Shown: positions 4,226-15,636, numbered from the stretch's first letter. The stretch: DNA of 64,000 nt from a bacterium (GCA_021814165.1 JAKAIX010000002.1:69371-133370); one strand, 5' to 3'. Program-made: numbers and translations. Notes: generated by a model not told the origin, from the sequence alone.

Positions 4226-7200
4226 CTATAATCTCCTTAATCCTATCCAGATTTTGAGCTCATCGAGCTCGGTATCAAGCTCCGCATCGAACTTCTCCGA
4301 TCGTTTCCACTCGAAGGACGCTGCTCCCGTTTCTTTCCTGATAAGCGCCTCGTTATTTTCAACGATGTGTTTGAATTCTTTGTTTCCTTCCGTCATAAGC
4401 GCGATTCTGTCCTTCGGCTCCAGTTTCGCGTCCTGGCGCAGGCCCTGAATCATCCTTACCAATTCTCTCAACATCCCCTCCTCCCGAAGTTCGTGCGTAA
4501 TTTCCGTATCAAGTATAAACTCCTCCTTCAGATTCTTATCAAACGTGATTTGCTTCACGTTAACCTCATCCTTCAATATATCAAGCAGTTCTTTCTCATC
4601 CTTTCCGCCAAAGGCGGATCCTCCTTTGGAGGAAATTCTCAATTCCCGTAATGGTTGCCTCACCTTAATTCCCAATTCCGCCCGCTTTGCGAGAACGGCA
4701 CTCGCAAGATCGCGAATTTGTTGCATTGCTCCAAGGAGTTTTTTGTCGATAAGCTTTTTGTCCGCCTTCGTCCATTCGGCCGCATGCACCGACGTGTTTT
4801 TCCCCTCAAGCGACAAATAAAGCGCCTCCGCAAAAAACGGCGTGAAGGGGGCCATGAGTTTCGTAATTTCTTCCAGCACGAACTTCAAGGTGGTTGATGC
4901 GGCGAGATAGTCTTTCTGTGTGTCCGGCTTTTGTAAACGCCTTCGCGAGCGGCGGATATACCATCGGGAGACGTCCCCGACGAACTCCTCGATATTTCTC
5001 GCCGCGATTCCCACTTCGTATATATCGAGGTTCTTCGTCGCGACATCGATAGTCTCATGAAGCCGCGCGAGAATCCACCTGTCGAGAATGTTCGAGGATT
5101 TTATATTTGAAGCTTTGGGTTTCGAATTTTTATCCCCGTATGTTTCATAAAATATGAACGAGTTGTAGATGAGCGAGAAAAACTGCCTCGATACTTTCCC
5201 GAGATCGGCTTCATCGAAGCGCTTCGGTTCGCTGGGAGGATTCACGACATAAAAGTACCAACGGACGGCGTCCGCGCCGTACTTCGCAATCATATCCCAC
5301 GGATTCACGGTGTTCCCTTTTGATTTGGACATCTTGGATCCCTCCTTGTCGAGAATGAGTCCTAGAACAATCACGTTCCGGTAGGGTGACTCGAGCCCTA
5401 AGAGTGTCGCAAGTGCAAGGAGTGTATAGAACCACCCTCTTGTCTGATCCATCGCCTCGCAAATATAGTCGGCGGGAAAGTCGATTGATTTCAGGTGCGT
5501 CCTTAGCTTCTGGTCGGAGAGTTTCAATACATGATCCGTGAGCTTCAAGCTGTTGCCGAAGGGGAAGTGCGCCTGGGCGTACGGCATCGCTCCCGAGTCG
5601 AGCCATACGTCAACCACCTCGGGAGTGCGACGCATCGCCGCCTTGCATTTGGGGCATCTGGTCGGGAGCTCGTCGATGTAGGGCTTATGAAGATCAAACG
5701 CGCCCGTCTCATCTCTCGGTACCAAGCGGAATGTTCCGCGTTCTACCTGCCCGTTTTTTACGTAATCTTCGCCGCGCCTATCCTTCTCCGCGACTGCCTC
5801 GACGCTTGTCCAGCCCTGCATGATGTGTTGCAGCATCCAAACGCATGATTCGTGCGTCACGACGAGAATCGTTTTTCCCGCATACTTCTTTTCGAGATCC
5901 CGTACAAAATCAAAGAGCCGCGCGCGAAGGTCCGCAAAGCTCTCGCCGTTCGGCGCTTGTTTTAAAAATTTCTCATGGCGGGAGCTGTAGTAGCCCTTGT
6001 ACGCCTCATACGGTTTTCCGTTAAAATCACCGAAGTCGAATTCGCGAATGCGCGGATCGAAAAGTACGGTTCCGAGAGAGAGTTGTTTCTTGAATATTTC
6101 CGCACTTTCTTTTGTGCGGGTGAGATCGGACGCAAACACGAGATCCACTTTGTCCTTTTTAATTTCCTTCGCCGCCGCCTCGATCTGTTTTCTCCCCTTA
6201 AGTGTGAGATGATACGGCTTCCTCTCGGGCCAACTGATAACCATGTGCTGAATGTTGCTCTCCGCTTCTCCGTGGCGCACGAAGATGTATTTATTGGCGC
6301 TTTTCGGCGCGAGGAGCTCAAGTTCCCTTACGCTTCCCGCGCAGTACCCCTTGCCGCATTTTTCGCACTGCCACACGGGGAGCGGCGTTCCCCAGTAACG
6401 ATCCCGCGACACCGCCCAATCCTTCACCTCGCGAAGCCATTCGCCGAACCTGCCGTCTCGAATCGTTTCCGGGACCCAGTTGATTTTTTTATTTGACGCG
6501 AGAAGTTTCGACCGGAGCTTGCTCATAGCGATAAACCATGAGTCGCGCGCGTAATACAGGAGCGGCGTACCGCACCTCCAGCAGAACGGATAGTCGTGGG
6601 TGTAAAGTTCGGTTTTAAAAAGGAGTTTTCTTTTCTTGAGATATTCAAGAATTTTATTCGTCGTTTCCGTTTCCGTCTTCTCGTCCTTCGATTTCACTGT
6701 CATTCCTTCGAATCCCTTCACGTCTCCCGTGAATCTCCCCCGCTCGTCCACCGTATGATGCTGGGGAAGCCCGATTTTTGTTCCGAGATTGTAATCGTCC
6801 TCGCCGTACATTACCGCGGTATGCACGACGCCCGTACCGTCAGTCGTCGTCACGAAGTCAGCGAGATATATCTTGTAGGAGGTCTCTGATTTAAGCGCCG
6901 GCACGTCGAAGAGCGGCTCATACTCAAGCCCGACCAGGTCGTTCCCGCTTAAAGTGGCAAGTGTCTCGTATTTCGTATCAAATATTTTATCCGCTAAATC
7001 CGCGGCAACAATAAAGTTTTCCCCGGTATTCTTAATACTCACTACTTGATACTTGATGCTCTTCCCTACCGCGAGCGCCACGTTTCCCGGTAACGTCCAC
7101 GGCGTCGTCGTCCAAGAGAGAATATAAGTATCACCGCGAGTTTTTAGTTTCGGGTTTTTAGTTTTTAGTTTAAATTTTATATATACGGAGGTGTCTTGCG

Positions 7201-7798
7201 TCTCCTTATACCCTTGTGCAATTTCATGCGACGAAAGCGCCGTACCGCATCGCGTGCACCACGGCACCACTTTGTGTCCCTTGTAGAGCAACTTCTTCTC
7301 CCATACCTGTTTCAAAATAAACCAGATCGACTCCATGTAGTCGTTCTCGTAAGTCACGTAAGGATGCTTCATGTCGAGCCAGAATCCGATTCGGTTCGTG
7401 AGTTTCTCCCACTCGTCCTGATACTGCCAGACCGATTTTCTGCACTCCTGGTTAAACTTCGAAACGCCATACGACTCGATTTCCTTCTTTGATTTGATGC
7501 CGAGCTTTTTCTCGACCTCGAGCTCCACCGGAAGCCCGTGCGTATCCCATCCCGCGCGGCGCGGCACGTAGAAACCTCTCATCGACTTGTAGCGGAGTAT
7601 GATGTCCTTGAAAGAGCGTGCAAGCACGTGATGGAGGCCCGGTCGGCCGTTCGCCGTCGGAGGACCTTCATAAAACACGAATTTTTTGCTCTTCTTGCGG
7701 GAGGTGAGCGTTTTTTCAAATATTGCGTTTGTGTGCCAGAACTCAAGTACTTTTTCCTCGATCTCCGGAAGCGAAAATTTCGAAAGCCTTCGTAGCAT
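4226..7798 (-). CDS. ileS: Isoleucyl-tRNA synthetase with an inserted histidine-phosphatase (PGAM-superfamily) domain
   Basis: 1190 aa. It has class I aaRS blocks, a CP1 editing motif (TDGTGVVHTAVMYGEDD), DVWLDSGAMPY and KMSKS. Residues about 503-700 carry YIFVRHGEAESN and ILVVTHESCVW motifs between two CxxC pairs. Confidence 0.9.
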   Translation of the reverse strand: MLRRLSKFSLPEIEEKVLEFWHTNAIFEKTLTSRKKSKKFVFYEGPPTANGRPGLHHVLARSFKDIILRYKSMRGFYVPRRAGWDTHGLPVELEVEKKLGIKSKKEIESYGVSKFNQECRKSVWQYQDEWEKLTNRIGFWLDMKHPYVTYENDYMESIWFILKQVWEKKLLYKGHKVVPWCTRCGTALSSHEIAQGYKETQDTSVYIKFKLKTKNPKLKTRGDTYILSWTTTPWTLPGNVALAVGKSIKYQVVSIKNTGENFIVAADLADKIFDTKYETLATLSGNDLVGLEYEPLFDVPALKSETSYKIYLADFVTTTDGTGVVHTAVMYGEDDYNLGTKIGLPQHHTVDERGRFTGDVKGFEGMTVKSKDEKTETETTNKILEYLKKRKLLFKTELYTHDYPFCWRCGTPLLYYARDSWFIAMSKLRSKLLASNKKINWVPETIRDGRFGEWLREVKDWAVSRDRYWGTPLPVWQCEKCGKGYCAGSVRELELLAPKSANKYIFVRHGEAESNIQHMVISWPERKPYHLTLKGRKQIEAAAKEIKKDKVDLVFASDLTRTKESAEIFKKQLSLGTVLFDPRIREFDFGDFNGKPYEAYKGYYSSRHEKFLKQAPNGESFADLRARLFDFVRDLEKKYAGKTILVVTHESCVWMLQHIMQGWTSVEAVAEKDRRGEDYVKNGQVERGTFRLVPRDETGAFDLHKPYIDELPTRCPKCKAAMRRTPEVVDVWLDSGAMPYAQAHFPFGNSLKLTDHVLKLSDQKLRTHLKSIDFPADYICEAMDQTRGWFYTLLALATLLGLESPYRNVIVLGLILDKEGSKMSKSKGNTVNPWDMIAKYGADAVRWYFYVVNPPSEPKRFDEADLGKVSRQFFSLIYNSFIFYETYGDKNSKPKASNIKSSNILDRWILARLHETIDVATKNLDIYEVGIAARNIEEFVGDVSRWYIRRSRRRLQKPDTQKDYLAASTTLKFVLEEITKLMAPFTPFFAEALYLSLEGKNTSVHAAEWTKADKKLIDKKLLGAMQQIRDLASAVLAKRAELGIKVRQPLRELRISSKGGSAFGGKDEKELLDILKDEVNVKQITFDKNLKEEFILDTEITHELREEGMLRELVRMIQGLRQDAKLEPKDRIALMTEGNKEFKHIVENNEALIRKETGAASFEWKRSEKFDAELDTELDELKIWIGLRRL

Positions 7799-7891
7799 GC
7801 TAACTATTGTAATAGGGACCTAGCTTTTTCGCAAAAATTCGGAATATTGGAGGCCGGGCTCCTATTGGGAACTAAACCTTCTGAAAACGTG

Positions 7892-7931
7892 CTGCCTCAA
7901 AATCTATGCATATGCACAAATTTTGAGGCAG
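7892..7931 (-). terminator. Hairpin CTGCCTCAAAAT...ATTTTGAGGCAG just downstream of the argS stop
   Basis: A perfect 12-bp inverted repeat with a 16-nt loop. A T-rich run follows it on the minus strand. Confidence 0.5.
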
Positions 7932-7936
7932 GTCGC

Positions 7937-9529
7937 TTACATCTTTTTTGGGGCGCTGATACCGATCGTCGAAAAGAGATTCTCAAATATAATGCATGTT
8001 GCGGCAACGAGTGCGACGCGCGCATCGCTGATTCCTTTTTCTTCTCCCGCCACGCGCTCCGCTTCGTAGAAGTTATGGAATGTCTTTGCGAGCTCCGATG
8101 CGTATCGCGTGAGGCGGTGGACGCCGTAGTCGCGGGCGGCATCCTCGATAATCTCAGGAAACCGCGCAAGTTCGCGGATGAGGCCTATATCATGCACGGT
8201 CGAGAGTTTCGTAACGTCGAAGTTCTTCGACGCGGTTGTTATCTTCATCTTCGTGAGAATATTCTTCGCGCGCACATACGCATACTGAACGTAATACACG
8301 GGGTTTTTCTGCGATCTCTCTTTCGCGAGCGCGAGATCGAAATCCATATGCGTTTCCGGAGCGATCATGAGAAAAAAGAATCGCGCCACATCGGCTCCCA
8401 CCTCGTCCACAAGCTCCTCGAACGTCACGAATTTTCCTTTCCGTTTGGACATTTTTACCAACTCTCCTTGTTCCATAAGGCGAATCGCCTGTGTGACAAG
8501 TACGGTCGATTCTTTGAACCCGAGGATTTTCGCGACGGCTTGGATGCGCGCCACATAGCCGTAATGATCCGGCCCCAGAATGTTGATCTTAGTATCAAAT
8601 CCGCGTTGCTTCGTTTGGAGATAATGCCCGGCATCCGCAAGAAAATACGTCGGATTCCCCTCCTTTGTGATAATTACCCGGTCCTTGTCGTCGCCGAACG
8701 CGGTCGTCTTGAGCCACGTTGCTCCGTCCTCTTCGAATACAAAATTTTTCTTCTTAAAGAGCGTGAGCACTTTCTTGACGAGGCCGGTCGTATGGATCTG
8801 TTTCTCGGAGGTAAAACGATCGAATTTGATCCTCGCTTTTTTCTGTACGGCAGTTTTGATAAACCTGAGAAAGTCTTTCGCGGCGCGCTCTCCCAGGGAA
8901 AGCGGCTTTCCCTTCATGCTCTCGATAAGCGCGCGGTGACCGTCCGCCCATTCTTTTACATAATCACCCTTGTAGTACTCCTCCGAGTCGGGAATGATTC
9001 CTCCCGCGGCAAGTATGGATTTCCCCAGGTTCAATACCTGATTTCCCGTGTCGTTCACGTAATACTCCCGCTCCACCTTTGCGCCCGCGCGCGCGAGCAC
9101 GTTTCCCAGGGCGTCGCCCAAAAATCCTCCCCTGCCGTTCGCGAGCGTAAGCGGCCCCGTCGGATTCGCCGAGATGAACTCAAGCTGGACTTTCTTCTTG
9201 AGGAGCTTGAGTGTTCCGTACTTCTTCTTCTCGTTCAAAATCCGCTTCAGCTCCTCTTCGAGTACGTTGCTGCTTACCGAAAAATTAATGAATCCGGGGC
9301 CCGCAACTTCCACTTTCTCGAAAAAACCCTTAGGCGCTTTTACCCCGATGCTGTCCGCGATCTTCGTTGCGATCTCCCGCGGATTCTTTTTCTCCGCCTT
9401 TGCGAGCTGGAATGCGACCATCGTTGCGTAGTGCGCCTCCTGATGTTCCTCGGCAACCCGCACGTCGAATACCGTCCCCTTGGGAACCGCTTTCGCGACG
9501 ATTGCCGTAATCCTCGATCGAATACCCAT
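7937..9529 (-). CDS. argS: Arginyl-tRNA synthetase
   Basis: 530 aa with an ArgRS-type N-terminal domain, a class I catalytic core and a DALR-like C-terminus. The 562-aa ORF on the + strand over the same span is its antisense shadow. Confidence 0.85.
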   Translation of the reverse strand: MGIRSRITAIVAKAVPKGTVFDVRVAEEHQEAHYATMVAFQLAKAEKKNPREIATKIADSIGVKAPKGFFEKVEVAGPGFINFSVSSNVLEEELKRILNEKKKYGTLKLLKKKVQLEFISANPTGPLTLANGRGGFLGDALGNVLARAGAKVEREYYVNDTGNQVLNLGKSILAAGGIIPDSEEYYKGDYVKEWADGHRALIESMKGKPLSLGERAAKDFLRFIKTAVQKKARIKFDRFTSEKQIHTTGLVKKVLTLFKKKNFVFEEDGATWLKTTAFGDDKDRVIITKEGNPTYFLADAGHYLQTKQRGFDTKINILGPDHYGYVARIQAVAKILGFKESTVLVTQAIRLMEQGELVKMSKRKGKFVTFEELVDEVGADVARFFFLMIAPETHMDFDLALAKERSQKNPVYYVQYAYVRAKNILTKMKITTASKNFDVTKLSTVHDIGLIRELARFPEIIEDAARDYGVHRLTRYASELAKTFHNFYEAERVAGEEKGISDARVALVAATCIIFENLFSTIGISAPKKM

Positions 9530-9578
9530 TATTAATTAATGTAACGCGTTACCGACAAAACCTCCAGTCGCTTAAGGA

Positions 9579-9612
9579 GGAAGCCCGGCCTCCGATCGGA
9601 GGCCGGGCTTCC
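9579..9612. repeat. Perfect 34-bp GC-rich palindrome GGAAGCCCGGCCTC-CGATCG-GAGGCCGGGCTTCC
   Basis: Read directly. The arms are the same as the outer arms of the 2786-2837 element. The flanking CCTTATATT motif is also shared with 2888-2900. Confidence 0.7.
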
Positions 9613-9659
9613 TTATATTAATCCGTCCGTAATTTTTGATTCCTAATTTGTAATTCCCG

Positions 9660-11429
9660 TTACACGACTTCTGCTTGATAACATGATTCGCAGTATACAA
9701 TCTCATGTCGCTCGGGCGCGTAGCTTGTCTCGAACTCGTTGGGACATTTCTCCGTCCCGTGAGTATGTTTCCCGGTATTTTGATAAACGCCGTTTTCCGA
9801 TTTCGATCCCACACATTGGCACTTTCTATGCCATAACTTAAGTGGATTCTTCCGAAAAAACCGCGCCTGATGTCTGCAGTTGGGACACAGACGCGGAAGG
9901 GGCAGATTCATCCTGCGGTGAAACGTGAGTTCCTCCGGAATGATTTTGAACGCCGTAGTACACTGATGCGCGCACTTCCCTTCGTGCGCGCATCCGACTA
10001 CCTCCTCCAAAATAGAATCCGGAACATCTTTAATGGTCTGCTGCAAATTTTTGCTCTCTTGCGTCACCTTATAGTTCCGCTCCTCCGGCTCCTTCCATAA
10101 AAATCCCTTTCCTGCCGCTTCCTGCTTTGAAAGAGGGAAGTAGTCCTGAGCGACCGTTTCGTTATATGCAAAGGGGCAGAGATCGGAGGAAAAAAATTCA
10201 CCGTATCCGAATCGCCGTCCTCCGGTATCCTGAAACGGTTTTTCTTTCATCTGCAGAACGACTTTTTCTCTTAATTCTTCATATTCCTCTTTCGAATATT
10301 GTTTGTTTAAAATGCAGTATTGCGCTTTCCGCAAACTTACGCACCCGAACAAATTATTCGAGTTCTCGCAGGTATCGCAGTATTCCGCATCAAAATCGTT
10401 CCATACGCAGTATCCGAACTTCACATTACTCGTCGTGATCGCGCTCACAATCTCATACGAAAACTGGCCATCATCAACCGCAACATACCCGTCATAACAG
10501 TTCCTGCTTTTGTTTCCGTGATTCATGAACTTCGAGTCCTCAAGCAATTCGGAATCGTATGCATGAAAGGCGTTTTTCGAGTTGAACACGTAGTCACCCG
10601 AAACGTTGGTGTTTTGAATCCCGTGGATGTGTTTTGATGGGAATCTTTTCCAGAACTCGAACGCGAGAACTCGCGTCGAGTCGATACCGTCCTGGGAGTC
10701 CAGTCTCATGGACTCCATTTCTTTCAAATAGTCCTCTTTCGAGTACTGCTTATTGAAAATCTGATAGCGCGCGTTCCGCAGGTTGGCACATCCGATACAG
10801 TCCTGGCAGTTCGCACAGTTCTTACAAAAGAAGAGGTCTTGGGAATCATTGCAATCCTCCGAAAAGCAGATCTTGTAGCACTTCCGGCACGTGACCGAAT
10901 CGTAAGAAAGTTCGCACTCGTGGCAATTCAGGAGATCCGCACTGTTGCGGCAATCGAAGGTTGAATACGAGTACATCAGATCCTCATTGTGGTCGCTTAC
11001 AAAGATAAGGTAACAATTTTTGTTGAACGCAGCGCCGTTCGCATAATCGCTCTTCACATTCTGAAATGCGAACGCATAAAGACGCGGAACTTTAAATTGC
11101 AGTTTCCTGAACTGTTCGAGAAAGGGCCTCGAGAAATCGACATCAACACCGAAAGAAAGCGGATCCCACTTATCCGAGTGGTAACACTCCCGGCAGTACA
11201 CTGTGTAGGGCTTGTCGGGAGAGTATATGGAAATTATGGTGTTGCCGCAGAGATCGCATTTTCTCCGGTACAAACTGCGTTCACAGCGCCAGATGAGGCG
11301 CCGCTGCAATCTGCATTCCGAACACCACGTGGGAGGAGGAACCTGTAGTTTCTCATAAAATGAAAAATCATCCGGTTCGATCGTGAACGATTGCTTGCAA
11401 TTCTGACAGATTTTGGATTCCGTATTCAT
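9660..11429 (-). CDS. Cysteine-rich multi-zinc-ribbon protein, paralog 1 of 3 (family not recognised)
   Basis: The true start is probably the internal Met (MNTESKICQNCKQSFTIEPDDF...) at 11429, not the track start at 11495. It has an N-terminal double CxxC ribbon (PPPTWCxxCRLQRR), two internal C-x2-C-x2-C...FGC...YCIxNKQYSKEEYE modules, and a C-terminal Cys/His cluster ending YCESCYQAEVV. Confidence 0.7.
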   Translation of the reverse strand: MNTESKICQNCKQSFTIEPDDFSFYEKLQVPPPTWCSECRLQRRLIWRCERSLYRRKCDLCGNTIISIYSPDKPYTVYCRECYHSDKWDPLSFGVDVDFSRPFLEQFRKLQFKVPRLYAFAFQNVKSDYANGAAFNKNCYLIFVSDHNEDLMYSYSTFDCRNSADLLNCHECELSYDSVTCRKCYKICFSEDCNDSQDLFFCKNCANCQDCIGCANLRNARYQIFNKQYSKEDYLKEMESMRLDSQDGIDSTRVLAFEFWKRFPSKHIHGIQNTNVSGDYVFNSKNAFHAYDSELLEDSKFMNHGNKSRNCYDGYVAVDDGQFSYEIVSAITTSNVKFGYCVWNDFDAEYCDTCENSNNLFGCVSLRKAQYCILNKQYSKEEYEELREKVVLQMKEKPFQDTGGRRFGYGEFFSSDLCPFAYNETVAQDYFPLSKQEAAGKGFLWKEPEERNYKVTQESKNLQQTIKDVPDSILEEVVGCAHEGKCAHQCTTAFKIIPEELTFHRRMNLPLPRLCPNCRHQARFFRKNPLKLWHRKCQCVGSKSENGVYQNTGKHTHGTEKCPNEFETSYAPERHEIVYCESCYQAEVV

Positions 11430-11498
11430 AATTCCCGTTACACGACTTCTGCTTGACCCTCCTTCGCTTTTCGAGCTACGAAGGGCAAGTAGCACCGC
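11430..11498 (-). other. 69-bp spacer between the tandem paralogs containing a fossil copy of a paralog 3' end (...QAEVV-stop + CGGGAATT)
   Basis: The 28-nt block TCAAGCAGAAGTCGTGTAACGGGAATTA at 9651-9678 (the C-terminal codons plus stop of paralog 1) is repeated at 11430-11456, directly upstream of the paralog 1 ATG. Confidence 0.6.
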
Positions 11499-13286
11499 TC
11501 ATACAACCTCCGCCTGATAACATCCCTCACAGTAGATGACCTCGGGTCGCTCCGGAGCGTACGGAGTTTCAAATTCGCTGGGACAGTGGGTGTTTCCATG
11601 AACGTGCTTACCGGTATTTTTGAAAATTTCCTTCTCGGAAGCGGCGCCCGCGCACATGCATTTCCGGTGCCAGAGCTTCAACGGATTGCGCTTCGAAAAC
11701 CGCTCATGGTGGCGGCAATTGGGGCAGAGGCGCGGAAGCGGTACTCCCAGCTGCTTGTACAAACTAAGCTCCTTGGGAATTATCTTGAAGGCGGTCGTGC
11801 ACTGCTCCACGCACTTCCCTTCGTGCGCGCATCCTACAACTTCGTTCAGGATAGAATCATTTACATCCTCGATACGATCCGGAAGATCATTGGCGCGTAC
11901 CGTGACGGTGTAATTTTTATTTTCCATTTCCCGCCATACGAGTCCGCGCGCTTCCATTTCCTCTTTAGTGAGCGGGTAATAATCTTGTGCAATTGTTTCG
12001 TTATAGGCGAAGGGTGAAAACTCCGGCGGGAAAAACTCGCCGTAGGCATACATCCTCCCCTTCTTATCCGTGTACGGCATCGCATTCATGTGGGCAACGA
12101 GCTTCGGCAACAGTAATTCATACTCCTCTTTTGTATACTGCCTGTTCAGGATGCAATACTGCTTGCTGTGCAATCCCACACACCCGAAGCAGTCCTGGCA
12201 TCCGGTGCAGCCAACCGAGTAGTAAATTCGCGCACTCCCCTTTATGAAGAAGCTGAAGTAATAGTCCTGGTTTTCATTCGATTCGAATCCTATCGCTATC
12301 GTCTCATACACTCTCTCGGCGCTCGGCATGCCGTAGTTGTCATACCCGTCCTTCACGCCGATCACCGCATACACCGTGTATTTCGAGTCCTCGGATCCGG
12401 TCCCCGACAGATCGAAACAGTTCTTGCAGTTCCTGGCGTTTCTCACGTTGTCACCAGTGGAGTTTTCCGTGTTGACCATAAACGCGTAGCGATGGAGTGA
12501 TTTTCGGTATAATTCGTCGAATTTCCGCTTGGCCTCCTGCAACGCCCCGTGGTTCCCGAGATTCAGCTCTTTCACCCGCTTTTCATATTCTTCTTTGGTT
12601 AGCTGCTCGTTAAAGAAACAATTACTCTTGCCTCGGAGATTCGCGCACCCGAAACAGTTCGTACAGTTCTTGCACTCATAAAGGAACCAGGAGTCGGAAC
12701 AGTTATCCGAGTATTTACTGAAAAGGAGTCGGTTAGAGTTCTCGCATTGGATATCCTCGTAGCAAAGTTCCATCTTCGAACAGTTAAAAAGATCGAGAGA
12801 ATCTCTCGTAGATGAGGTGGTCTCGGAATAGAGAAGGTCTTCGTTCTGCCTGCCGCCGAAAATGAGATAGGAATTTTTATTCGAGGCGGTGAAGTTGCAG
12901 TAATCGGAGTTCACCGATTGTGTATTAAAAAGATTGATCACGGGTACCGCTTTAAAGAGGTTTTTGAATTGGGATAAAAAACTTTCGCTGAAATCCAACT
13001 TCATGCCGTAAGACATCGGATCCCACGCATCGCCCCACCAGCATTCCTGGCAAAATACCGTCATCGGGCTCGTGTCGGATAGAAAGGAGATAATCGATTT
13101 CCCGCACTTGTCGCACTTTCTCCTGTAGAGCGATCTCTGGTTCCGGAACGCCAGGCGCCGTTGGAGCCGGCATGCCGGGCACCACGTGGGGGGAGGCACT
13201 TTCATCTTCTCGTAGAAGGCGAAGTCATCCGGCTCGATCGTGAACGATTGCTTGCAGTTTTGGCATTGTCGTGTTTCCTTCTCCAT
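11499..13286 (-). CDS. Cysteine-rich multi-zinc-ribbon protein, paralog 2 of 3
   Basis: 595 aa. It starts MEKETRQCQNCKQSFTIEPDDFAFYEKMKVPPPTWCPACRLQRR, has the same module architecture as paralog 1, and ends YCEGCYQAEVV. Confidence 0.7.
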   Translation of the reverse strand: MEKETRQCQNCKQSFTIEPDDFAFYEKMKVPPPTWCPACRLQRRLAFRNQRSLYRRKCDKCGKSIISFLSDTSPMTVFCQECWWGDAWDPMSYGMKLDFSESFLSQFKNLFKAVPVINLFNTQSVNSDYCNFTASNKNSYLIFGGRQNEDLLYSETTSSTRDSLDLFNCSKMELCYEDIQCENSNRLLFSKYSDNCSDSWFLYECKNCTNCFGCANLRGKSNCFFNEQLTKEEYEKRVKELNLGNHGALQEAKRKFDELYRKSLHRYAFMVNTENSTGDNVRNARNCKNCFDLSGTGSEDSKYTVYAVIGVKDGYDNYGMPSAERVYETIAIGFESNENQDYYFSFFIKGSARIYYSVGCTGCQDCFGCVGLHSKQYCILNRQYTKEEYELLLPKLVAHMNAMPYTDKKGRMYAYGEFFPPEFSPFAYNETIAQDYYPLTKEEMEARGLVWREMENKNYTVTVRANDLPDRIEDVNDSILNEVVGCAHEGKCVEQCTTAFKIIPKELSLYKQLGVPLPRLCPNCRHHERFSKRNPLKLWHRKCMCAGAASEKEIFKNTGKHVHGNTHCPSEFETPYAPERPEVIYCEGCYQAEVV

Positions 13287-13395
13287 AATTCTTAGTTCAT
13301 AACTCTTTATTCCCGTCTCTACTACTCTACCGCGCGGGGCAGAAAATCTCCAGCACGAAGTTGATCTTCAAATACGTTTCCCTCCAATGTAAATA

Positions 13396-13431
13396 AAAAG
13401 TGGCGCAGAAGGGTTGTTTGCGCCACTTTTC
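13396..13431. terminator. Hairpin AAAAGTGGCGC...GCGCCACTTTT
   Basis: Inverted repeat with flanking A and T runs. It lies downstream of the 129-aa gene on the minus strand and upstream of the Cys-rich paralog pair. Confidence 0.55.
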
Positions 13432-13470
13432 AAAAGATGGGTTTTTAAAAATGAGGTTGAGAAGGTTGAG

Positions 13471-13860
13471 TTAGCTATTATTATACACAACTTCGGTTTT
13501 TGCGTCCGCTGTAACAGTAACCTTGCCGTTGGAAGTAATGAGCGCATTTATCAGGTTTACGTGGCCCGTTTTTCTTGTTTTCAGTCCTGTTACAGCAACC
13601 TCTGAAGGGAGTGCGGCATTGTCACCTACCTGTTCAACGGTGCGGATTGCAAGATTGGTAACACCACAAAAGAAAATTTGTTTCACCTTCTGTGCGGTTA
13701 CTCCTTCAACCTGTTCACTAAGATTGATGGTATCGCCGATTCTTGCGTTTTCGATGTCGGCACGCACTGTTTGGTTGTGAGTCATTCCCGCTTCTTCCAT
13801 GTAATTGGTAAGAACTTCCGGTTGGGAACTCGAAAGCACAACTACCGTTCTCTTTCTCAT
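13471..13860 (-). CDS. Hypothetical protein (129 aa), first gene upstream of the Cys-rich tandem pair
   Basis: This ORF sits in an AT-richer stretch. I recognised no motif. Confidence 0.35.
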   Translation of the reverse strand: MRKRTVVVLSSSQPEVLTNYMEEAGMTHNQTVRADIENARIGDTINLSEQVEGVTAQKVKQIFFCGVTNLAIRTVEQVGDNAALPSEVAVTGLKTRKTGHVNLINALITSNGKVTVTADAKTEVVYNNS

Positions 13861-14159
13861 AAAAATACCCTCCTTAGGATATTTAGTTATGAATTAAATT
13901 ATTTAGGTACAGCCGTGATATCAAGGCTGATGTTAGAGTACACCACACCAGACCCGCACATCAAGTGTTTCTCTTTCACGCTCACGCCCCGCCCCGGAAG
14001 TTAGTAGCACGAGCATATCCACAGTTACCTATTTCAATCTCCTCCATCTGTGATACCTTTAAAAGAACCAAAAACGAGCCACGAAGATAGGAGGCGCGCT
14101 CGTCCAGGTAGTACAGTAGTACGGAACGCTTTTTTAAAACTTTAAATATAGAGGTTATC

Positions 14160-14684
14160 ATGAAAGCGAAAAATGTCTTTGGTATATTTCTGTGTTTGGT
14201 GTTCGTTGGTCTCTTAGCAATTTCGCAGGTAGATCAAGCGGGTAATACCAAAACACAAGCACAGGTAGTTGATTTTCAATCGGCGTTTCAAACCCATCCA
14301 CCTGGAACTGCAACCCTTAAGGTATACCAGGTGAAAGAGAATATAACCGCAGGACAGGTGCTACAACGAGTACATATGGAACAGTTGGATGTCGGCCAAA
14401 TTGCAAACCAGAAGCTGATGGCAAACACTACTCGGAATTTAACAATGGTACAAGGTACAAATGACGTTACAGGTGCTGCTCAATACATTGTTCTCCAAAA
14501 GGTAAAAACCCAAGCTATACAAGATGATTTCGGTAACGGTTATAACCAATTGGCGAACTCGGCTTACTCAGAACAAAATACTACAAACTTTAACTCTGCA
14601 ATCTTTGCAAATAACAGTGCTGCTGTGAGTAATGATGCTCCAACCTCAAAATTTCTAAGAGCAAGCTACGTTCTTAGAATCTAA
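14160..14684 (+). CDS. Hypothetical secreted protein (N-terminal signal peptide, Asn/Gln/Thr-rich)
   Basis: The N-terminus MKAKNVFGIFLCLVFVGLLAISQVDQA is signal-peptide-like. A hairpin terminator follows at 14695-14730. Confidence 0.45.
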   Translation: MKAKNVFGIFLCLVFVGLLAISQVDQAGNTKTQAQVVDFQSAFQTHPPGTATLKVYQVKENITAGQVLQRVHMEQLDVGQIANQKLMANTTRNLTMVQGTNDVTGAAQYIVLQKVKTQAIQDDFGNGYNQLANSAYSEQNTTNFNSAIFANNSAAVSNDAPTSKFLRASYVLRI

Positions 14685-14694
14685 TTTCCAGTTC

Positions 14695-14730
14695 TTAGGG
14701 AAGGCAAAATGTCTTCCCTAAAACTTTTTA
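14695..14730 (+). terminator. Hairpin TTAGGGAAG-GCAAAATGT-CTTCCCTAA followed by an A/T run
   Basis: Read directly from the sequence, downstream of the 174-aa gene. Confidence 0.5.
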
Positions 14731-14760
14731 AGGCCTCTACGAATTTAACTCCGGCACCAG

Positions 14761-14794
14761 AAAACCACAGAACCCACCATTAAGGTGGGTTCTG
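14761..14794 (-). terminator. Rho-independent terminator of the tmRNA gene (CAGAACCCACC...GGTGGGTTCTG + TGGTTTT on the minus strand)
   Basis: A perfect 11-bp inverted repeat immediately 3' of the tmRNA acceptor end. Confidence 0.65.
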
Positions 14795-14801
14795 TAGTTT
14801 G

Positions 14802-15139
14802 TGGAGATGGCCGGAGTTGAACCGGCATCCAGTAGCTTCCTTACAAACCTTCTACAAGCTTAGTCCGTTAAGACGATGTTTGATTCTTTGTTTAACGAGC
14901 GTATCCGAATCGCTATACACTCACGAGTCCCATGTATAACACCAGTGATCCTCTATGGAACCTGAAGGACTGATGCCCCTCCTTCGCATAAAGCTACGGG
15001 AGGGGATCCCACACTACGCGTAAGCGAGCGCGGGAACTGCGTTTCTATTGGCAGTTAAAATTGAGTGAAGAGTTTCACGAGATTTTCAGCTCGACCTGCG
15101 GTTTGCAAGGGAATGATACTGTCGAAGCCTAGCATCCCC
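14802..15139 (-). ncRNA. ssrA: tmRNA (SsrA), about 338 nt
   Basis: Minus-strand 5' GGGGATGCTAGGCTTCGAC and 3' ...GCCGGTTCAACTCCGGCCATCTCCA form a 7-bp acceptor stem with one G-U pair, and the T-arm is GCCGG-TTCAACT-CCGGC. A candidate tag ORF GCC AAT AGA AAC GCA GTT CCC GCG CTC GCT TAC GCG TAG encodes ANRNAVPALAYA. smpB is adjacent. Confidence 0.7.
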
Positions 15140-15186
15140 AACGGAAATTATCAATTTCCAATTTTCAAATAACGAACGAGGAGATA

Positions 15187-15636
15187 CTAATATGAACGTT
15201 TCTCGGCTCGTTTTATTTCACGCTCCGTCTCACGTTTCTTGATGGTTTCCCGTTTGTCATATTGTTTCTTGCCTCTTGCGAGCCCGAGCTCTATCTTCAC
15301 CCGAGCGCCTTTATTATACAATCTAACAGGCACCAGCGTCAACCCGCTCTTCGTTTTTCCTATAAGATAGGAGATTTCCTTTTTATTAAGAAGAAGTTTC
15401 TTCGTGCGCATCGAGTCGTAGTTTGCGGGCGCGTTTTTCGGTTGGAATGACGGCACGTCCATCCCCACGAGGAATAACTCCCCGCCGCGGACGATCGCGT
15501 GCGCTCCCGCAAGGTTTACGTGCCCCGTTTTGATGGATTTTGCCTCGTGTCCGGATAATACGATGCCGGCCTCGAATTTTTCGAGGATCTCATAGTCGAA
15601 TCTCGCTTTTTTGTTTTCCTTTACACCTTTCCGCAT
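15187..15636 (-). CDS. smpB: SsrA-binding protein SmpB
   Basis: 149 aa with an SmpB-like pattern (KKARFDYEILEKFEAGIVLSGHEAKSIK...LVPVRLY..GK.KVELALA.GKK.YDKRE) and a basic C-terminal tail. Confidence 0.85.
   Translation of the reverse strand: MRKGVKENKKARFDYEILEKFEAGIVLSGHEAKSIKTGHVNLAGAHAIVRGGELFLVGMDVPSFQPKNAPANYDSMRTKKLLLNKKEISYLIGKTKSGLTLVPVRLYNKGARVKIELGLARGKKQYDKRETIKKRETEREIKRAEKRSY

Follow-up and report, generated by a model that had tools for sequence, protein, structure and literature searches.

The 64,000-nucleotide stretch of bacterial DNA analyzed here (GCA_021814165.1 JAKAIX010000002.1:69371-133370; hereafter the window) matches contig DAIBYO010000002.1 of assembly GCA_027423885.1. 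It carries three members, A, B, and C, of an unnamed family of large cysteine-rich proteins whose genes, in related genomes, recurrently adjoin the gene for an orphan VirD4/TrwB-like ATPase. A preliminary description made from the sequence alone had reported the adjacent minus-strand pair with its shared architecture and a third copy 8 kb away, and both are borne out by the open reading frames (ORFs) and their alignment. The three genes, with their scores against the family hidden Markov model (HMM) where available, are as follows.

9660-11429, minus strand: gene A, A-type subfamily; ORF of 589 aa from an ATG; family HMM, 868 bits over the full length
11499-13286, minus strand: gene B, B-type subfamily; ORF of 595 aa; family HMM, 1009 bits
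21313-23058, minus strand: gene C, C-type subfamily; ORF of 581 aa, 8 kb from the A/B pair

The gene A ORF stays open upstream as far as a GTG at 11495. A, B, and C align end to end with pairwise identities of 44 to 49%, a mean column identity of 68%, and, as described earlier, strongly conserved termini. They contain 39, 35, and 32 cysteines (5.5 to 6.6% of residues), short of the more than 40 per protein previously claimed. A 19-residue hydropathy scan found no transmembrane (TM) or signal-like segment in any of the three; their Kyte-Doolittle maxima are 0.58 to 0.88, compared with 2.2 to 2.7 in true TM neighbors, and the proteins are predicted to be soluble. Of the preliminary view that these are cytoplasmic metal-binding proteins, the soluble part thus stands, while metal binding stays putative, the invariant Cys and His residues being compatible with several zinc sites. 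More than 7,900 database homologs, together with a ratio of nonsynonymous to synonymous substitution rates (dN/dS) of 0.05 against a 92%-identical ortholog, indicate that A, B, and C are real genes rather than chance ORFs; the lack of conservation in relatives that the preliminary description had allowed for was not found.

From its pattern of conserved residues, each paralog is predicted to carry a double treble-clef-like zinc finger at both ends. Between them lie two internal modules and a conserved acidic domain. These parts map to the pair as listed below; residue numbers in the text are those of gene B, and pLDDT is the predicted local distance difference test score of its AlphaFold2 model.

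13002-13286, minus strand: gene B N-terminal double finger, residues 1-95; Cys conservation, pLDDT 91-95
12603-12932, minus strand: gene B module 1, residues 119-228; roughly nine coils of 12 residues each, Cys occupying coil positions 1/4/7/10
12141-12500, minus strand: gene B module 2, residues 263-382; a less Cys-rich duplicate of module 1 (C360, C369, and C378 conserved)
11847-12140, minus strand: gene B helix and acidic conserved domain, residues 383-480; pLDDT 88-97, Cys-free
11502-11846, minus strand: gene B C-terminal double finger, residues 481-595; invariant Cys/His, resembling the N terminus
11145-11429, minus strand: gene A N-terminal double finger, residues 1-95; from the paralog alignment, with a PF23477 match at residues 51-86 (E = 0.0017, below cutoff)
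9663-10007, minus strand: gene A C-terminal double finger, residues 475-589; from the paralog alignment

Finger 1 comprises C8/C11/C36/C39 and finger 2 comprises C58/C61/C79/C82, joined by an Arg-rich stretch (residues 40 to 57) with a mean net charge of +6.2. The C-terminal finger residues are C486/H488, C492/C496/C521/C524, and C543/C545/C568/C586/C589; C486, C492, C496, C521, C524, C543, C568, C586, and C589 are invariant and H488 is nearly so. The N-terminal 100 residues resemble the C-terminal 115 (BLASTP E = 8e-13), and about 380 full-length members terminate exactly at CY(Q/N)xE(V/I)x-COOH. Across the family, conservation reaches at least 80% at 26 Cys positions, and the conserved Cys/His sets are consistent with four to five structural zinc sites. 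The acidic domain, with the motif GEFFPxExSPFAYNETIAQxYFPLTKEEA...W and a net charge of about -5 over residues 403 to 480, ranks with the best conserved of the Cys-free blocks (mean column conservation, 0.77 to 0.87). The whole proteins are net acidic (mean, -4.2), with the third finger region at +2.9.

The two modules resemble each other (E = 3e-15), confirming the internal duplication noted earlier. Module 1 has 21 alignment columns in which Cys reaches at least 15%, and every one of them belongs to one residue class modulo 3 (chance, about 3e-10). Stacking its 12-mers in register gives a Cys ladder at positions 1/4/7/10, and the last coil is a full CxxCxxCxxC (C205/208/211/214) followed by LRxK..FNxQ. 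Ladder Cys outside this last coil are only 15 to 70% conserved. Hydrophobic autocorrelation is modest at lag 12 (0.13 to 0.29) and 0.26 at lag 24; the 12-residue periodicity is much clearer in the Cys register test. The AlphaFold2 model of gene B, built with 149 sequences, has an overall pLDDT of 85.5 and a predicted template modeling score of 0.86, with the termini and the central acidic domain above 90 pLDDT. DSSP bridges in this model recur about 12 residues apart, and the modules are modeled as narrow Cys-lined beta-solenoids with about 12 residues per coil.

Pfam and NCBIfam searches with A, B, C, and 46 relatives returned only subthreshold treble-clef finger matches, at the termini. The best scores were 18.4 bits for PF23477 (cutoff, 27), 16.7 for PF13451 (cutoff, 24), and 18.3 for TIGR04272 (cutoff, 36), with none for gene B; weak matches occur in 23 of 46 and 8 of 46 family members (best E values, 3e-4 to 8e-4), and a few database members have precomputed PF13451 or PF23477 matches. 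Like PF13451 (zf_Tbcl), PF23477 (zf_Tbcl_2), and TIGR04272, the family has paired CxxC...CxxC motifs at both termini. These pairs lie about 17 to 24 residues apart, with invariant or near-invariant Cys and conserved aromatic and Pro positions between them, as in the motifs F-x-I-x3-(D/E)-x2-F-Y...P-x-P-x2-C-x2-C-R and P(F/Y)xPxxxRPxxYCxxC. Unlike the proteins those models describe, the window proteins score under the cutoffs, and their finger domains, themselves of a kind without established function, make up less than one-third of the protein.

Searches of the PDB gave no match by single sequence and only chance antibody matches by profile (E > 0.6), and no fold match for the family was found there. 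The solenoid hits were to adhesins, curli, and ice-binding proteins; the closest solenoids are of the generic single-chain type (LbH acyltransferase domains, curli CsgA, bactofilin, and the plant ice-binding protein 3ult). Among the closest known systems is the Cys-braced 12-residue beta-helix of the type seen in the Tenebrio molitor antifreeze protein (PDB 1ezg); the family shows no significant structural or sequence similarity to it and lacks its TCT ice-binding motif. Several Cys-rich classes were considered and set aside. The family has no CxxCxxCxxxCP motif or Fer4-family profile match of ferredoxin-type 4Fe-4S proteins. Its length (581 to 595 aa), its Cys content, and its many invariant Tyr, Phe, and Trp residues do not fit a metallothionein, and neither motif nor Pfam profile supports a DnaJ zinc finger or Hsp33.

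The family is large and narrowly distributed. Each of A, B, and C has at least 7,000 to 8,000 homologs, with more than 7,900 among the matches listed, almost all full length at roughly 500 to 650 aa. Their names are nearly all absent or "hypothetical," one being a CxxC-x17-CxxC domain protein, and all informative source names belong to the Parcubacteria group (Nomura-, Staskawicz-, Lipton-, Giovannoni-, Yanofsky-, Jorgensen-, Brenner-, and Niyogibacteria, Paceibacterota, and Minisyncoccia). Searching 1.84 billion representative proteins with a profile gave 4,997 matches with E values up to 1e-3; at the stricter cutoff of 1e-30, there were 2,205 clusters. A one-genome-per-species scan found at least 543 family loci. 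Many metagenome-assembled genomes in that scan are labeled "uncultured Ca. Saccharibacteria" (labels unconfirmed), and two short family contigs in bins from outside the candidate phyla radiation (CPR) are probably misbinned. A defense-system or phage origin was rejected: PADLOC defense models gave nothing above threshold for A, B, C, and 46 relatives, PHROGs gave only matches at E = 3e-4 to 6e-3 to a family of unknown function, tblastn found no match among 50,697 phage records, and none appeared in IMG/VR viral contigs, plasmids being left unsearched.

The preliminary description had read the paralogs as an actively diversifying set, a claim that the comparison with other genomes contradicts. 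Orthologs in other lineages and candidate phyla are 55 to 65% (A), 56 to 62% (B), and 65 to 80% (C) identical to their window counterparts; A, B, and C are therefore each closer to their own orthologs than to one another, which indicates that the duplications are ancient. Against the 92%-identical ortholog, gene B has a dN/dS of 0.053 (dS, 1.09), falling to 0.026 and 0.045 for the two modules that had been called variable, and the relative that carries this ortholog retains the B-then-A order. On this comparison, the paralogs appear to be old, functionally maintained subfamilies under strong purifying selection rather than a rapidly diversifying set.

Tandem arrangement is the norm for the family, a feature that the preliminary description missed: between two and nine copies occur in 54 of 83 loci, and the two genes of every adjacent family pair (75 in all) point the same way, separated by a median of 29 nt. 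The window genome itself has at least seven copies, mutually 43 to 51% identical, including a second array between alaS and the infA-rpsM-rpsK-rpsD-rpoA-rplQ operon in GCA_027423885.1. The features of this array and of a direct repeat in the window are listed here.

Contig DAIBYO010000003.1 (locus L167), 10001-15355: second array; three full copies of 580, 597, and 593 aa
Locus L167, 1-221: fourth, truncated copy of the second array; C-terminal end at the locus edge
11410-11456: 47-nt junction repeat, copy 1; B-A spacer plus the first codons of A (...QAEVV, stop, cgggaatt, ATGAAT...)
9632-9678: 47-nt junction repeat, copy 2; final codons of A and the sequence that follows

The two repeat copies, one on either side of gene A, are 89% identical, and each consists of a family gene end, an 8-nt spacer, and a family gene start. 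The copy at 9632-9678 is probably the relic start of a lost downstream gene in a collapsed A-type tandem array. As a scar of array expansion and contraction, the junction repeat suggests that copy number has changed over time, rather than that the sequences are diversifying quickly.

The second feature missed earlier is the family's recurrent partner. In neighbor clustering over 82 family-centered loci, the top cluster was a soluble VirD4/TrwB/TraD-type P-loop ATPase (PF10412, DUF87, and TraG-D_C), with 46 genes in 32 of the 82 loci. Thirty of these genes directly adjoin a family gene, all of them co-directional and mostly with gaps below 100 nt. In a reciprocal test on 80 ATPase-centered metagenome loci from a different collection, many on short contigs, a family gene lay directly beside the ATPase in 39 and somewhere in the locus in 45, compared with a roughly estimated chance level of about 5%. 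Unlabeled 400- to 700-aa ORFs in ATPase loci lacking the family, considered as divergent members, proved to be unrelated housekeeping genes. B-type orthologs (57 to 58% identical to gene B) occur in the ATPase-linked arrays.

Two layouts recur, in which the handles beginning with c denote other neighbors. One reads secD-secF-c4 (sigma70 region 4 plus HARE-HTH)-c22-c3-(c11)-ATPase-array, and the other reads c10 (PaaX-like, opposite strand)-dnaK-long ATPase-array-short ATPase-dnaJ-c12, so that in several lineages the whole ATPase/array cassette lies between dnaK and dnaJ. The arrays are bracketed by two distinct VirD4-like paralogs, a long one of about 620 to 730 aa that ends in a treble-clef finger and a short one of about 485 to 510 aa (L006, L044, L056, L066, L076, L134, L139, L155, L160, and others). 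The C-terminal finger of the long ATPase matches PF23477 at E = 3.6e-11, and its motif VPFxPxxGRPVYCKxC mirrors the last finger of the family, TPYAPERPEVIYCExCY. The c3, c11, and c22 neighbors are TM proteins. Because different parts of one fused phage family of unknown function, phrog_5156 (824 positions), are matched by c3 (L081 210-1655) and the ATPase (L006 7895-9898), the ATPase is probably anchored in the membrane by c3. Further, a gene of about 101 aa for the divalent-ion tolerance protein CutA1 (PF03091) lies inside or beside the clusters in six family-centered and six ATPase-centered loci (L023, L031, L043, L051, L093, L115, L137, L148, L161, L164, and others).

A survey counted 5,713 VirD4-type coupling proteins of type IV secretion systems (T4CPs) in 2,918 genomes of Patescibacteria, with just 148 near virB4, and its authors considered that they were possibly "exapted for other functions" (PMC12102498). 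The family-linked ATPase is such an "orphan T4CP" of Patescibacteria. T4CP tails are known sites of partner recognition (Pfam TraG-D_C description), and the ATPase tail bears a finger of the family's own type. As with T4CPs and their cognate partners (the TraD tail and TraM), and with EccC of the type VII secretion system (T7SS) and its Esx/PE/PPE proteins, paralog arrays stand operon-like beside the ATPase. Unlike in T4CP systems, no VirB4, relaxase, or type IV secretion system (T4SS) channel genes were identified among the annotated recurrent neighbor clusters; the ATPase is a soluble protein encoded apart from its TM partner c3, whereas phrog_5156 joins the two, and no known T4CP client or adaptor is related to the family proteins. 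Searches of the literature on the finger families, on CPR Cys-rich and CxxC families, and on orphan T4CPs found no paper on this family, and a Paceibacteria metatranscriptome paper covers only signal-peptide proteins. The view of an unrecognized family is thus upheld: its building blocks, treble-clef fingers and a solenoid, are of known kinds, but its architecture, Cys ladder, and T4CP linkage seem not to have been described before.

We tentatively propose that the family proteins may serve the orphan VirD4/TrwB-like ATPase as specificity or loading factors in the cytoplasm, with both the interaction and the client being putative. The ATPase would be tethered to the membrane through the c3, c11, and c22 proteins, the family proteins would dock via their finger modules, and different paralogs would confer different client specificities. 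Several points weigh against this proposal. In this genome, such an ATPase is absent from the 10 kb around each of the seven known copies, both the window and the second array lack it and its membrane partners, and about half of all loci are without it; linkage in cis is therefore not obligatory. Because related, compact genomes share part of their gene order by descent, synteny among them is to that extent not independent evidence, and the other neighbors are ordinary housekeeping genes (aminoacyl-tRNA synthetases, ribosomal proteins, and ftsW/murG) expected for any gene there. Likewise, the finger matches of the window proteins fall below the Pfam and NCBIfam cutoffs, and the model gives the middle modules only moderate confidence (pLDDT, 65 to 73). 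A bolder version, which we consider unlikely, is that the family, the c22-c3-c11 proteins, and the two bracketing ATPase paralogs would form an unrecognized Parcubacteria-specific translocation machine without a T4SS channel; the paralogs would select the substrate or be the substrate, for instance, nucleic acid or protein passing between episymbiont and host, and the Cys-lined solenoids would be a new metal-braced fold.

That the family proteins are themselves cargo is less likely than a role as factors. On this account, they would be nonclassically exported or injected effectors or surface proteins, with the T4CP-like ATPase reading their invariant termini and the solenoids exposed and specificity bearing. 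Clusters of substrates beside a secretion ATPase are found in other secretion systems, ESX/T7SS being one example, and the paralog arrays resemble them. The extreme C terminus is conserved to the last residue, the solenoids match adhesins, curli, and ice-binding proteins, and the SecDF and DnaK/DnaJ neighborhoods concern protein handling. However, several putative zinc sites and compact folds would make poor translocation substrates, a module dN/dS of 0.03 to 0.05 and orthologs kept across candidate phyla are unlike host-exposed proteins, T4SS channel genes are rare near the surveyed T4CPs, and there is no signal peptide. The lack of TM or signal segments, the apparently metal-locked folds, and the strong purifying selection across old orthologous subfamilies lead us to favor a cytoplasmic role over cargo, which we regard as improbable. 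We are equally doubtful that the proteins are nucleic acid-binding factors, for example, for scavenged DNA moved by a TrwB-like translocase and contacted through Arg-rich helices beside the fingers. The positive charge between fingers 1 and 2 and in the third finger region would suit this role, TrwB-type ATPases are DNA-dependent translocases (Pfam PF10412 description), the ATPase weakly matches the Ced DNA import ATPases CedD and CedB, and DNA scavenging is thought to occur in CPR bacteria (PMC6744442). Against it stand the net acidity of the whole proteins and of their conserved central domain, the lack of any recognized binding domain reaching threshold, and the seven or more divergent paralogs, which generic DNA binding would hardly explain.

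A role in metal handling, as a zinc or iron buffer or store, a redox switch chaperone, or an Fe-S carrier using the Cys ladders that line the solenoids, seems quite improbable. The widely conserved Cys positions, with Cys at every third residue and a full CxxCxxCxxC coil, would fit such a role, as would the recurrence of CutA1 inside the clusters and the embedding of some arrays between dnaK and dnaJ. Yet the Cys content is low and the conserved aromatic and polar residues are many, unlike in metallothioneins; the ladder Cys beyond the last coil are variably conserved; Fer4, DnaJ zinc finger, and Hsp33 matches are missing from the Pfam results; and no Fe-S assembly genes occur among the recurrent neighbors. 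Least probable of all, in our estimate, is a structural function in which the solenoid rods would homo- or hetero-oligomerize into a cytoplasmic filament or scaffold, as bactofilin does. Of these readings, that of specificity or loading factors for the orphan ATPase is the one that we consider most likely, at low confidence.

The family copies in the window are otherwise flanked by argS, an IleRS-like gene, smpB with its transfer-messenger RNA (tmRNA), lexA, and genes for an MFS transporter and a GDPD, the last two on either side of gene C. Other elements near the pair are as follows.

9578-9613: perfect 18+18-nt palindrome (AGGAAGCCCGGCCTCCGA/TCGGAGGCCGGGCTTCCT) between gene A and argS; no T-run
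13391-13426 (approximate), minus strand: terminator-like hairpin after a 129-aa gene; GC hairpin GTGGCGCA...TGCGCCAC, then T-run TTTTTATTT
14799-15139, minus strand: tmRNA (Rfam RF00023, 117.5 bits), immediately downstream of smpB (15187-15636), the usual pairing
14160-14684, plus strand: 174-aa ORF whose N terminus has a hydrophobic, signal-like segment and whose body is rich in Asn, Gln, and Thr
4226-7798, minus strand: 1,190-aa IleRS-like class I aminoacyl-tRNA synthetase with an inserted histidine phosphatase domain (PF00300, E = 2e-32)

The palindrome may be a transcript end or boundary hairpin. A promoter and terminator consensus scan gave counts not above shuffled expectation, and it missed the hairpin at 13391-13426 because of its loop of about 10 to 11 nt. 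The preliminary description had suggested that the 129-aa gene (13471-13860) may be co-transcribed with the pair or functionally linked to it. This partnership was dropped on account of the gene's own terminator-like hairpin and the lack of family-wide co-occurrence; outside the window organism's contigs, homologs were limited to two fetched loci, where other genes intervene in the roughly 3 kb between them and the family gene. No structured RNA was found near the pair, the tmRNA being the sole real match. The 174-aa ORF has no family match, and among the fetched loci it matches only the window organism's own contigs. In the IleRS-like protein, the PF00300 insert occupies residues 505 to 662 inside the catalytic domain, and DUF5915 is C-terminal.

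Parcubacteria are tiny symbiotic bacteria of the CPR with genomes smaller than 1 Mb, yet this genome devotes at least seven genes (about 12 kb) to an unnamed family. The family's 12-residue solenoid with its Cys ladder may be a new structural motif braced by metal. The ATPase linkage offers a testable handle on two questions at once, the role of the orphan ATPases and that of the Cys-rich family. The family is conserved across many candidate phyla, and such families are a likely seat of the unknown biology of the CPR.

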